Assembly (NCBI GenBank): GCA_020137815.1
Contig: CM035353.1
Span: 496,001 to 560,000, forward strand
Reading direction: 5' to 3'
DNA from: Hormiphora californensis
Lineage: Eukaryota; Animalia; Ctenophora
DNA: 64,000 bases
Shown here piece by piece: positions 19,757 through 25,700 of the stretch. The notes beneath the pieces are model-generated. The model saw only the letters and a list, made by a program, of their open reading frames with translations, was not told where the DNA came from and searched no databases. The translations under genes and the position numbers were made by a program. Positions within the stretch are counted from its first letter, which is position 1. Every line of letters starts with the position of its first letter.

Positions 19757-22700
19757 ATGGATCAAGGAATGGACAGTTCTAACTGTTCTTACGATCAATC
19801 AGGTAAAACCAAAATAAAAGCTCGTATACTTTTGCTAAAACTTAACCGTTCACACGTGCAACACTACACACCCCTTCACCAGGTCTACCAGACGATGAGC
19901 TGCACAGTCTGCAGGATGCAGTTAGCAATGCGTTGAAAGAGCACCGAGATGCATTCGGAATGGATTCTCCTGCCAGCAAGAAGATGAAATAGTAAGTTGT
20001 TAATTAATTATCACTGTGATAGGGAATTGATCCTCAGGGAGAACCTTACAGGGAAATTGGTCTGGAATAGGTTACAACTCAAAACACAAGTTTAAAGAAA
20101 TACAATTATTATTGTTTCAACTTTAGGTTTCAAACTTTTCAACACTACTTTAAACAAATTAATTTGAGGTTATGCGTGATGAAAAAACGGACAGCAGAAG
20201 ATATCAAAAAGGAGCTGCGGGATTATGGAGTCCCCTTCAAATCCAACACCAACAAAGCTAAACTAGTCAAACTACTAGAGGACCACATCGCTTCAATAAC
20301 GCCAGAAACTAATGACCCAGACGAGCACTACGAATCTGACTTTCATCGAGATGTATGTCGTGCTTACAATGAGGTAGTTTTTTGGAGGCAAAACCTCGTT
20401 ATGGTTCCCTCTGGAAAGGCTGGAAAAGACTTTGTGCATGAAGCAGCCAATATTTTGAATTCCTTCAACAACAACGGAGGGAGTAAGACATATGCTATTA
20501 TGCTCCTCATGATTCTCTTCCCTCTCGTTCTGCAGAAACCTTCTGCAAACAGCAAGTCCCGAGATCACATTGCTGCAATCGAGAGAAGGCTGACGATTTT
20601 TCGGAACGGAGACTTTGATTTATTATTGCGAGAAGGGCGTGTAATCCAAAGCAGACTACCCAGCAAGGATGACAAGTCGAGAAACGCCCTGAAATCATTT
20701 ACGAGACTCATGCTACGTGGAAAAGTGAGTCAAGCACTGAGAGCGATACGGGACAGTGATGTCGCACCGGTTCCTATCACACCGGAAGTCGTGGGTGAAC
20801 TGATCAAGAAACACCCACCTAGTTCAGAGACATCATCCCTTCTTCAAGGACCAGCACTCCCGAATACACATTGCATGTTCTCTGAGATATCAGCTGGGGC
20901 AGTAACCAAGGCAGCGAAAATGTTATCCGGATCAGGAGGACCATCAGGGGCTGACTCCGATCTATGGAAGCATATGCTGCTATCTAAAAAACTCAGTCCT
21001 GCATCTTCCGAGCTAGCGCAGGCTATTGCCACCTTTGCCTTCAAACTAGCAACAGAACCTACAGATCCAAAACTTTTATCAGCCTATGTTGCATCTCGCT
21101 TGGTTCCACTGAGCAAACGGCCAACAGGTATCAGGCCCATTGGAATAGGGGAAGTTCTGAGGAGACTGGCTGGAAAAGTCATTACCCAAGCTCTCAAACC
21201 AGACCTGATAGAGTGTACTGCACCCGTCCAGCTGTGTGCAGGGTTGGAAGGCGGCGTTGAAGCTGCTGTTCACGCTGCTAGAGACTTGTTTGATCTTGAG
21301 AGTACTGAATGTTTATTGTTAATTGATGCGAGTAATGCTTTCAACTCCCTAAATCGAATTGCTGCCTTAAACAACGTTAAATACACTTGCCCTGAATTTA
21401 AGATTTATTTACAAAATACATATGGACTAACCGCGAACTTATTTTTATGCGATGGCGAGAACAATGAAGTTTTGAAGTCGTCTGAAGGGACAACCCAGGG
21501 AGATACTGCTGCTATGCATATGTACGCTTGCTGCCTAATGCCGCTTATACGGTCTGTTGAGGATAAGGACTCTAAATTGACTCAAATCTTTTACGCAGAC
21601 GACGGCCTTGGCGGGGGCACTCTCAGTACTGTAAAAACCTGGTGGGAGAAAGTTAAACAAGATGGACCTGGTTATGGCTATCTCCCAAATCCAGGGAAAT
21701 CCTGGCTGATTGTGAAACCAGAATTTGAAGAAGCTGCTCGATCCATGTTCCCTGATGTAAACATCACTTCTCAGGGCCAGCGTTACCTGGGTTCATACAT
21801 TGGTACGGAGGAAGGTCAGGCAGAGTTTGTGAGGAACGAAGTTGCGAAATGGGAGAGTGAAATTGATCAGATTTGTGATATTGCCCTGAACGAACCTCAG
21901 CTTGCATACACTGCATACAACATCGGACTATCAAAACGTTGGAGCTATCTCATGAGAACCACTCCTGGGATTTCGGACCAACTAGGCACTATTGAGGAGA
22001 AAATTCATCAGAAGCTCCTCCCGGCGATAACCGGTCAGCCAGTTGTAAATGAAACCTTGAGATTGGTTGCAGCCCTCCCTGTAAGATTCGGAGGACTAGG
22101 AGTAGACAACCCTCAAATATCATCAGACTCAGACTACAGTTTCTCAAAGTTTGTTACTGAAGAGCTCTCAGTTGCAGTCCTAGCTCAACAGGAAACATTC
22201 AAAATCAACCAAAAGGAACGAGCAGAGAAGAAAACCCTCATCCACCGAACCAAGAACGATATTCATCAGAAGAAAATCGACGAGATCAAAAACATGATGA
22301 CTACAGCTGAAATCAGAAACCTGGACCTACTCATGGAAAAGGGGGCCTCATCCTGGTTAACATGTCTCCCTCTCCAATCTTTGAACTTCACCCTCAACAG
22401 ACAGGAGTGGCACGACGCCATGTCAGCCCGTTATAACCTGCCTCTCGTCGGACAGGCCTTACCTCAGCATTGTGCATGTGGGGAAGAAAACACCATCGAT
22501 CACCTCATATCCTGTAAACTCGGAGGTTTTGTATGTTTCCGACACAACAACGTGAGAGATTTCATTGGCCACGAACTGAATAAAGTATGTGTCGACACTA
22601 AGATCGAACCCCATCTCCTAAATGTTAGAGGGGTGAATCTTCCGGCTGGCACTATAACAGCCGATGGCGCCAGACTTGACATCAGTAGTCGCGGCTTTTG

Positions 22701-25700
22701 GTCGGATATGGACAATATCTATTTCGATGTAAGGATTTTCAATCCAAGGATATCGTCCAACTCAAACCAGACCATCGCCAAAACATATGAAAAACACGAG
22801 AGAGAGAAGAAAACATCCTACCTCCACCGTGTCCTAGAGGTGGAAAAGTCAACATTCACACCACTGGTCATGTCAACTACAGGGGGCCTTGGAAGGGAAT
22901 TTAATAAGACTTTGAAACAATTGGCTGAGAAGAAGGCGACTAAAACAGGATATTCATACGATCAGTGTATCCGGTACCTGAGGCTAAGGTTGTCATTTGC
23001 CATGGTCCGCTCCGTCACCATTTCCATCAGGGGGCACCGCGGACGACTGAGGGCAGAAGGCAGCAGCGGTCGGGATGACAGTATCTACCAAATAGACTAA
23101 ATCTTTTATTTATATAATTTATTGACCCCGTTTGTTTAATTTATTATTGACATTGTAAGTGTGTGTACCACTATTTATATTCAAGGCCAATATCGGCCGA
23201 CCCCCCCCCCGTTTCAACTTTAGGTCGCCAGTTTAAATAGGACCTTACAAAATACTAAAACCTCGTTCTCGCAGTAGTATCGAGGACGACCTGGACCTGG
23301 ATGACAGGAAAACCCCAGGCTCAGCGTCCTCTTCAACGGGGAAAGTCTCCCATAACGCTATCGAGAAACGGAGACGTGACAAGATGAACATGTACATTGA
23401 TGAGCTGGCGGCGATGGTTCCCATGTGTAGTGTCGTTAGCAGGTCGGTAGATACACTACTGAAGTCGTCCTCCTCCTCCTCCTCCTCTTCTTCCTGCTTG
23501 CGAGGTTCTTCTCGAGATTCAACCAAAATGGGTCATTCTCCTGCACCACCGTTCTCGACGCCACTCACATGCTCGTGAGTCATATATCGAACTAACACAC
23601 CACACATTGTTCACACTTCACACATTGTTCACACATTGTTCACACTTCACACATTGTTCACACATTGCTCACACATTGTCCACATATTGTTCATTCATAC
23701 ACTCATACACAATCCGTGTCATTGCAACCATTACAGTCCCTTCAAGTCATTTTGCGACCTAAGCCATCCATCAAGCCTTGTTCTAGATAGATAAATGTAG
23801 TACCATCGCATGACACGGGGTTTTATGTGTTTAAGTGTTACCGCTATGTGTTAGGCCCTATATTAGACTCTGGCATTTTCTGGGCACCTCTTACGCGTAC
23901 GTACATGCGAAAGGGCTAAGTTCACGCTCCTTGCTCCCATTCTTCAGGCGCGTTTGTCTATGTTGTATTAAATAGTCAGATAGTCGGATTATAGACTAAA
24001 ACAACCACCATCATTTCCTCATTTTTAGGGCTCCGTTTGTTTCTCACAGGGTGCACACTGCCCTCTCTTCATCTCAATCCTCCCTTTCTTGGTTGGTCCC
24101 TCTCTCCAGTCTCCTAACTTCCTCTCCATCTCAGTTCCTCTTTCCCTGGACTCACAGAGCTCCTTCCCTCCCTCTGTCTGTCTGTCTGTCTCTATCTCAT
24201 TATCTATCTCATTCTCTCTCTCTTTCTCTCTCTCTTTCTCTCTCTCACTCTCTCTCTCTCTCTCTCTCTCTCTCTCTCTCTCTCTCCCGAACATTTGAAC
24301 CTTCTCCCACAGCTTTCTTTCTAATGGTACATGTCTGTGCCTCTAAGGTGTCGTCATATATATATGCTACTGCAAGTCGGTGATTGGACAAAAAGAGATG
24401 TATAGCACCAGAGATTGGGTGCTCGTAGTATACGAATCTTCTATATTTAGACAATCAATATATTCAACTCTTTTGTGTTACCACCTTCACCAGAACCACG
24501 GTGTATACTTGATATGCCTTTTCAGACGCCCTGATAAGTTGACTATTCTCAAGATGGCTGTGAGACACCTGAAGGCTCTACGATACGCTAATGGGGGTGA
24601 GATACATCATACACATGTCCACAAATGCAGGATTAATTGAAAATTATTATACAGTCGACAGAGGCCCAAGGGGCCCGGCCCCGGATGAGTCAAACGGACG
24701 ATATAATAACCCCACTAACATTACAGGTGGTCACAACAATCAACTGAGGCCCACGTTCCTAACAGACGAGGAACTGAAGCACCTGATCCTTGAGGCGGAG
24801 GACGGGTTCCTGTTTATTGTGGGCTGTGAAAATCAGAGGATCATGTATGCGAGTAACAGCGTCACGCACGTGCTGAACCACACCAAAGATGACCTTTGTG
24901 AGCTGGGATTCCTGGATATTGTCCATGCTTGTGACCAGGTAACTGACACATGTGGTCCTAATTGTGACGTCATTGTGACATGACGTCACAAAGGTGTAAT
25001 AGTATGTAATATTAAACCTTTAAACATGAAAATTTAAGATTTTGTTTAGTCTGCCTGGTGGTATTATTATTTCTCTCATCACCCCCTCACCAATTTAAAT
25101 AGGAGTTAGTGAAGGAACAGCTGCTCGTCACTGACGCGGAAAACACACCAAGTGAAAAGAAATCAACTCCTGCAGAATTCAATATGGTATGTCTCTCTCT
25201 CCCAGCATATCTTTGGTCTATATTAACTGGTCTACAGAATAAATATCTAGACGTGCGTCAATAGTCTACTGCAACACGCAACAGCTAGACACATGATACA
25301 TCATGATTCTCCCCCTTCCAAATATCACTCTTCAAACCAAACGATGGTATTATACGTGACGAAGTTATCTAGCCGATTTGTTACCAGGTAACAGGTAAGG
25401 TATCTGACATTACCCCCCCCCCCCCCCCCCTTCCCAGGTATCTGGTTCTAGGAGGTCTTTCTTCTGCCGCATGCGACATGGAAAGAGATCAAATGACGGG
25501 CAAGACGAAAAGAAGAAACACTCCAACGTCTACTCCATTGTCCACGTCACTGGGTATGTTGCAACATGTAATAAATACACACTTCTAAATAATGTCCAGT
25601 ACTAAGCATGGTGCCTTCTCCGTCATAACACGTGTGTCAGCTGGTGTCACGTATGTTAATCATTGGAACCCATTTTAGATTTACCTAAAGGACACACACC

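Follow-up and report, generated by a model that had tools for sequence, protein, structure and literature searches.

Why should two unrelated retrotransposons in one stretch of a ctenophore genome begin with the same 42 nucleotides (nt)? The question is raised by 64,000 nt of Hormiphora californensis contig CM035353.1 (assembly GCA_020137815.1, positions 496,001 to 560,000; hereafter the window), in which the 42-mer occurs at exactly 2 positions, 20127-20168 (site 1) and 55354-55395 (site 2), both on the + strand, with 0 further shared nt on the left and 1 on the right. At each site, as already reported in a first-pass annotation of this DNA, the 42-mer forms the 5' end of a different long interspersed nuclear element (LINE). 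The 42-mer is the exon of the ctenophore spliced leader (SL), and we conclude, with a probability of about 0.8, that its presence on these LINE copies results from trans-splicing of the element RNA, which was then copied up to a few bases from the cap.

The 42-mer matches nt 3-44 of the published H. californensis SL at 42/42 positions (sequence in PMC8527503). The site 1 copy is identical to the exon of an SL RNA gene in a metagenome locus (L014) and corresponds to leader nt 2-43 if the A preceding the 42-mer in that gene is counted as nt 1; because the L014 leader starts at this A, the first G of the published SL cDNA consensus may be cap-derived. Where PMC8527503 deals with the SL, it reports the leader on 56% of H. 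californensis Iso-Seq reads and counts 718 copies in the genome of this species and 491 in that of M. leidyi. At the published density, 0.42 copies are expected in 64 kb (P = 0.07 for at least 2), so that 2 copies in the window are unremarkable. The SL section of that article terms the dispersed copies spliced-leader loci, leaves the sequence attached to them unstated and makes no link to retrotransposons.

A scan of metagenome contigs for an exact 30-nt stretch of the leader yielded 22 matches in 21 loci, all of which were examined; the scans of viral_contigs and genome_contigs returned 0 matches each. In 10 of the 22, the leader is no more than 8 nt from the contig start; these contigs are unrelated to one another and of mRNA type, and each has a single uninterrupted host-type open reading frame (ORF), from which we infer their RNA origin. 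These contigs include cathepsin, a KH protein, CCT, RPL21, PSMD13 and CDC37, and 8 of the 10 display Pfam matches, with one match falling short of the curated cut-off. The published match and this position at the 5' ends of mRNA-type contigs bear out the initial assignment of the 42-mer to the ctenophore SL. Two further matches fall in L014, where the leader followed by GTAAG occurs twice, in a repeated unit of 778 bp that also holds a 5S rRNA gene; the SL intron starts GTAAGCTGAG and folds with z = -3.67, and the 13 bases before the leader coincide with the end of the loose-end consensus in DNA run X11. L014 is a tandem SL RNA gene arrayed with 5S rRNA, with units of a 5S rRNA gene and an SL RNA gene with hairpins at 263-825 and 1041-1600. 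The 2 window leaders differ from such genes: site 1 shares only GT with the SL intron, site 2 has GA, and the flanks are unrelated. The GT after the site 1 leader was considered as a sign of an SL gene and rejected, as the intron is not matched.

The other 10 matches head LINE-type sequences, 7 recognized by domain or homology and 3 from ORF1-like proteins. Both an apurinic-like endonuclease (APE) and a reverse transcriptase (RT) are encoded by L005, L006, L010 and L021, and an APE by L012; L002 and L013 are homologous to this APE/RT group. The single ORFs of L011, L018 and L019 appear to be LINE ORF1-like, as suggested by the sequences themselves, by a motif that they share past the leader, by the (AAT)n tail of L019 and by a weak Atlas lead; the L018 ORF has no Pfam match and no match to other leader-locus ORFs. 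No recognizable host retrogene was found among the 10 matches. Thus, as initially proposed, the leader coincides with element boundaries, and 10 more copies show it at the head of further LINE families. We also noted that L019 461-1625 packs the leader, a single ORF1-like gene and the (AAT)n tail into approximately 1.15 kb and may represent an ORF1-only non-autonomous LINE, that the first 30 nt past the leader in L011, L012, L018 and L019 hold an upstream ORF of 1 to 4 codons and a shared short motif, and that in L011, L012 and L019 the leader is directly followed by TTTYAG, an acceptor-like word.

The site 1 element lies in an intron of an ARNT-family gene, in the orientation of the gene, as the first-pass annotation had stated: the downstream exon matches the BMAL1/ARNT bHLH domain (best E = 1.7e-9), and the element ends 49 nt 5' of the intron acceptor. 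It is flanked by a 15-bp direct repeat (20114-20128 and 23211-23225) found nowhere else in the window, and the last 2 nt (GT) of the 5' repeat double as the first 2 nt of the leader. Because GT is common to both, the duplication measures 13-15 bp with a 2-nt microhomology; the target-site duplication proposed earlier is therefore real, but the leader overlaps it by 2 nt and so is not wholly inside it. The distance of 10 nt between the leader and the ATG at 20179 was correctly described. Contigs of X3 and X5 (2 samples from 2 studies, one of which may be the source of the window) skip the whole unit and keep one copy of the target with small indels. Since these empty alleles lack both the leader and the element, the two were inserted together and the insertion is polymorphic.

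The ORF architecture, target duplication, 3' tail and empty site identify the site 1 element as a non-LTR retrotransposon of the R2 group, which encodes a restriction-like endonuclease (RLE). The RT was recognized by RVT_1 (E = 2.8e-9), and the PD-(D/E)xK-like endonuclease by motifs and a whole-protein fold match rather than by a domain search of its own. A profile built from the ORF and 52 of 120 listed homologues (53 sequences) matched only R2 proteins (4 of 177,635 PDB sequences); a single-sequence PDB search gave 1 match with an uninformative E = 0.29. The top 7 fold matches of the protein model (predicted local distance difference test score, 89.8) are R2 proteins, ahead of LINE-1. A Pleurobrachia bachei protein is 95% identical to the ORF over 39% of its length, and a comparison with viral_contigs gave 2 pattern matches, 0 of them confirmed. 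Its assignment to the CRE clade follows the first-pass annotation and is provisional. The N-terminus (20179-20300) has a weak HeH/LEM-like match (E = 0.026, below the cut-off), and many longer homologues carry PHD fingers at their N-termini. Summed contig depths in X3 reach approximately 116,000 in the leader bin and rise along the element from 93 at the 5' end to approximately 1,600 near the 3' end, against 40-70 in the flanks; this profile (contig sums, not copy numbers) hints at many 5'-truncated copies of the family. Among the contig joints listed, none connects an element 3' end to the leader, and among the loose ends listed, none marks an alternative 5' end at 20169-20175, negatives to which we give no weight. 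One X3 contig aligns from 20175 only and has 5 unaligned bases before it. A further run, X10, yielded nothing but short pieces and may be DNA.

The site 2 element, approximately 4.5 kb long, is intronic and antisense to its host gene, which encodes an AAA-ATPase. It shares with L010 75% identity in the 5' untranslated region (UTR) and 61% over about 3.3 kb, with matches along ORF1, APE and RT, and L010 is an intact relative with Exo_endo_phos and RVT_1 domains. Site 2 thus holds an APE-type LINE with ORF1 and an ORF2 encoding APE and RT, the window copy being broken by indels; these are packed from about 56100, where the sequence looks uncorrected. Its affiliation to L2/CR1 is putative; the (TTA)n tail would fit this clade. 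The target duplication is ambiguous, being either 5 bp without a mismatch or 13 bp with 2. A duplicate of the site 2 flanks (72% identity over 1.3 kb to the left of the site, about 70% to the right) is an empty-site copy, likely an uncollapsed allele. In the same region, 54093-63100 reads as a tandem duplicate, approximately 70% identical with many one-base indels, probably two alleles in tandem. The 2 leader-headed elements are unrelated, as initially claimed: one has the RT-RLE and the other the APE-RT architecture, and no ORF2 of the site 2 group matches the site 1 protein at an E value below 0.1.

The 2 window sites and the 10 metagenome matches amount to 12 LINE-type copies. In all 12, which represent at least three unrelated groups, the element is joined to the last base of the leader, and in 0/12 do the 10 nt past the leader match the SL intron. 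The copies begin at leader nt 1-9 and their upstream flanks are unrelated; a second leader upstream was seen in 0/12 (4/12 have fewer than 20 nt upstream to inspect). In 3/12, an AG coincides with or immediately precedes the first base of the leader, and in 3/12 a GT directly follows the leader, two of the latter being APE LINEs. In the site 2 group, the junction occupies a homologous position in seven diverged elements (site 2 and six relatives), the relatives having ORF1s 31-61% identical and diverged 5' UTRs, which in this group measure 145-215 nt. No search filter was involved in finding the two window leaders, and both match the host SL at 42/42 positions; because the UTRs and ORF1s have diverged, fresh addition of the leader fits better than old inheritance. 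Consistently, contigs of the DNA runs X3, X5 and X11 exit the leader at 20127/20128 and at 20168 into unrelated flanks, with 22, 23 and 27 contigs, respectively, exiting at 20168 (agreement 0.41-0.44). In one X3 contig, the leader runs to 20156 (its first 30 nt) and is followed by two bases and a new leader start; the joint could be either a partial tandem of leaders or the trace of an insertion into a leader copy.

The exact join at the end of the exon in at least three unrelated groups, with no intron bases, points to a product of trans-splicing. A precursor RNA would be transcribed from an upstream host promoter or from the outron of a master copy, and would be spliced to the SL RNA at an acceptor on the 5' boundary of the element; judging from general LINE biology, the element's own protein would then copy the trans-spliced RNA by target-primed reverse transcription, which fits with copies stopping 0-8 nt from the cap and with the 2-nt microhomology at site 1. 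We regard this origin as very probable for the APE LINEs and, with less assurance, as probable for site 1. Inserted copies could be self-renewing, re-spliced at the terminal AG of their own relic leader, or dead-end daughters of outron-bearing masters, and we lean towards the latter. The first-pass annotation had pointed to an acceptor-like site upstream of the site 1 leader. Such a site does exist there, but it does not extend to a general mechanism: it is present in only 3/12 copies, and the site 2 element runs opposite to its host gene. Moreover, its use would leave tandem leaders, so that the 0/12 tandems speak against a general role. None of the three findings that the annotation had named as fatal to its proposal (a 42-mer missing from diverse mRNA 5' ends, a dispersed repeat unrelated to element boundaries, or other full-length copies never carrying it) was made, although no other full-length copy of the site 1 family was seen.

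Several points weigh against this account. For none of the families did we see a precursor that carries an outron and acceptor, nor did any RNA read capture a leader-element joint being made. GAG is a poor splice acceptor in most animals, which counts against self-renewal. The scan for an exact 30-nt leader is blind to leaderless or diverged copies, low-coverage assemblies favor repeats over single-copy retrogenes, and 7 of the 10 LINE-type loci have one assembly prefix in common. Three of the 10 have at most 6 nt upstream of the leader and could be transcripts, the species and the DNA or RNA origin of the contigs not being given. Finally, the GT after the site 1 leader and the leader-like target of this element fit a different origin.

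Because the site 1 target resembles the leader, a likeness that the first-pass annotation had missed, an origin by targeting of SL RNA genes has to be weighed for this site, where we consider it unlikely. The R2-group element would have its master copies in SL RNA genes, receiving the leader and the cap in cis from the SL promoter, and the window copy would be an off-target insertion at a leader-like site. Indeed, the target read from the 3' junction (23211-23240) aligns in register to leader nt 2-31 with one gap (approximately 21/30), a likeness equalled at 3 of 3,000 random anchored positions; the targets of the other two LINEs score 2-14 against the leader, compared with 22 for site 1, and the first 7 nt of the site 1 target occur at 20 of 128,000 window positions. 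The likeness was, however, noticed post hoc at one site. A 10-nt UTR is too short for a promoter, the X3 joint at 20156 could be an insertion into a leader copy, and passages of PMC3636483 and PMC4640811 give spliced leaders as the insertion site of most described CRE and NeSL elements. On the other hand, the GT is not diagnostic given its distribution among the 12 copies, the two SL gene units of L014 hold no element, and site 2 and 7-10 APE-type copies are left unexplained.

It is improbable that the leader was captured once and inherited as part of the element 5' end, with transcription from an internal promoter and no trans-splicing. Inheritance would account for the conserved junction among related families, and the 5' UTRs of the site 2 group could accommodate an internal promoter; however, separate captures would be needed in at least three groups, the window copies match the host SL at 42/42 positions against at least 25% UTR divergence between relatives, and the 10-nt UTR of site 1 offers little room. 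A possible remnant of an inherited leader lies within the LOA-like element at 10050-14910 (a provisional clade label; APE-RT-RNase H, with a 10-bp duplication). Its 5' end has no leader, as the first-pass annotation had noted, but the ensuing claim that the leader is family-specific is weakened by a possible decayed leader inside it. This look-alike at 10248 is the best non-exact leader match among 5080 window tiles and was equalled in 0/2000 shuffles of the region and 0/224 real tiles; its end-to-end score is 36 against 30 for the next best, while local scores of 34 occur elsewhere and it was found post hoc. If real, it is an inherited leader that decayed once the element had gained a new 5' end. 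An ATG after it opens, by eye, a frame of approximately 100 codons before the main ORF.

Still less probable are chimeras made by an RT jumping from LINE RNA to free SL RNA or to an SL-capped mRNA. U6-L1 chimeras provide a model for such products, R2-group enzymes do jump between templates, and the partial tandem leader in X3 could be one such product. However, the junction falls precisely at the end of the exon in all 12 copies, neither SL intron nor host mRNA sequence is included, and the leaders sit on homologous full-length element ends rather than on 5'-truncated ones. The notion of a dispersed repeat with no relation to the SL, or of an artefact of assembly such as cDNA contamination, has a negligible probability in spite of the many indels from about 56100 and the probable uncollapsed duplicate, being refuted by the exact match to the published SL and the SL gene exon, the clean duplication and intact ORF at site 1, the empty alleles in 2 samples of 2 studies and the leader-LINE junctions in independent assemblies.

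Coordinates of the leader copies, the elements that they head and the surrounding features in the window
Feature	Positions	Strand	Basis or remark
Possible decayed leader, 31/43 identical, ends CAG, 198 nt inside LOA-like element	10248..10286	+	
ARNT/BMAL-family bHLH gene intron holding the site 1 element in sense	19992..23274	+	Boundaries from GT/AG and frame, not RNA
5' copy of target-site duplication, 13-15 bp	20114..20128	+	Direct repeat; single target copy in empty-allele contigs of X3 and X5
Spliced-leader copy heading R2-group element	20127..20168	+	Identity to published SL and L014 exon
5' UTR, 10 nt, starts GT, no further match to L014 SL RNA intron	20169..20178	+	
Intact single ORF, 973 amino acids: RT, then CCHC knuckle, restriction-like endonuclease motifs	20179..23100	+	
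3' UTR, 110 nt, ending in ten C's (23201-23210)	23101..23210	+	
3' copy of target duplication	23211..23225	+	Direct repeat
AAA-ATPase exon (katanin p60/VCP-type matches); intron of this gene holds the site 2 LINE	55152..55321	-	
Second spliced-leader copy, 43 nt with preceding A (A may be target-derived)	55353..55395	+	Exact match
LINE with ORF1 and APE-RT, related to L010, indel-ridden from about 56100; ORF1 start 55581, (TTA)n tail near 59847-59863	55396..59863	+	
Duplicate of both site 2 flanks without leader or LINE, indel-rich	61289..63100	+	

Elsewhere in the window, near-perfect long palindromes (fold-back elements) occupy 2599-3296, 6229-8491, 46504-47509 and 48796-50289, and a 3.3-kb inverted duplication spans 840-4158 and 4494-7795. 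An ORF of 963 amino acids (35853-38744, - strand) contains many tandem Ser/Arg/Lys-rich repeats of 15 residues. An Rfam search of the window gave 0 matches.

A trans-splicing origin of leader-headed LINEs would likely explain many of the hundreds of leader copies scattered in ctenophore genomes. The hundreds of copies in the two published genomes thereby gain a testable identity, set apart from the 5S-arrayed SL genes. This is relevant to annotation, because PMC8527503 suggests that long reads are mis-mapped onto genomic leader copies as false first exons. As a built-in tag of complete LINE insertions, the leader also makes full-length elements and host retrocopies directly countable. If the dependence on trans-splicing is true, it would be a third way in which non-LTR elements define their 5' end, beside internal promoters and ribozymes, and one common to unrelated clades within a single animal lineage. 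A wider conjecture, which we regard as rather doubtful as a whole, is that several ctenophore LINE lineages lack a promoter and 5' end of their own: copies in transcribed DNA would be cut from host pre-mRNA by trans-splicing at the end of the relic leader, gain a new leader and cap and retranspose, so that most of the 500-700 dispersed ctenophore leaders would be complete LINE insertions, while the R2-group element may also home to leader-like sites. If site 1 instead reflects targeting of SL genes, ctenophores would join trypanosomatids and nematodes as hosts of SL-targeting elements. A literature search that left subscription journals and Repbase reports mostly uncovered brought up no account of genomic LINEs headed by a leader, whether in ctenophores or elsewhere among animals, so a prior mention is possible; PMC4402516 gave no passage on trans-splicing.

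The dispersed SL loci described in the SL section of PMC8527503 have the same sequence as the window copies, and those examined here are LINE 5' ends, unlike true SL genes. The closest parallel to a leader fixed in DNA is provided by the DinoSL-relic retrogenes of dinoflagellates, where, as proposed here, leader sequence in the DNA betrays a trans-spliced RNA that was reverse-transcribed (passages of PMC12014239). In dinoflagellates it is host genes that are tagged, and tandem relic arrays arise from re-splicing, whereas in Hormiphora, an animal, the LINEs themselves are tagged, with a near-complete single leader and 0/12 tandems. Mobile-element RNAs are also trans-splicing substrates in Hydra, where about 30% of transposon Iso-Seq reads carry an SL (from the parts of PMC12220107 that address it), and in Caenorhabditis elegans, where SL1 is found on the spliced subgenomic 2.4-kb RNA of Cer1 and not on its 8-kb RNA (likewise from part of PMC3315495). 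In both cases this is known from RNA; the leader in Hormiphora is fixed in inserted DNA, and the spliced RNA would therefore be the transposition template. CRE1/CRE2, SLACS, CZAR and NeSL-1, as portrayed in passages of PMC3636483 and PMC4640811, resemble site 1 in being promoterless R2-group elements with a single RT-endonuclease ORF and an SL at the 5' junction. Their insertions, however, are in SL RNA genes, whereas site 1 lies in the intron of a protein-coding gene with the leader on the 5' side only, and site 2 is APE-type. R2 itself is promoterless, is freed from the host co-transcript by a 5' ribozyme resembling that of hepatitis delta virus and sometimes keeps host sequence at its 5' end (PMC3774820). 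The 10-nt UTR of site 1 is too short for such a ribozyme; trans-splicing would take its place, cutting the element from a longer co-transcript, setting its 5' end and adding a cap.

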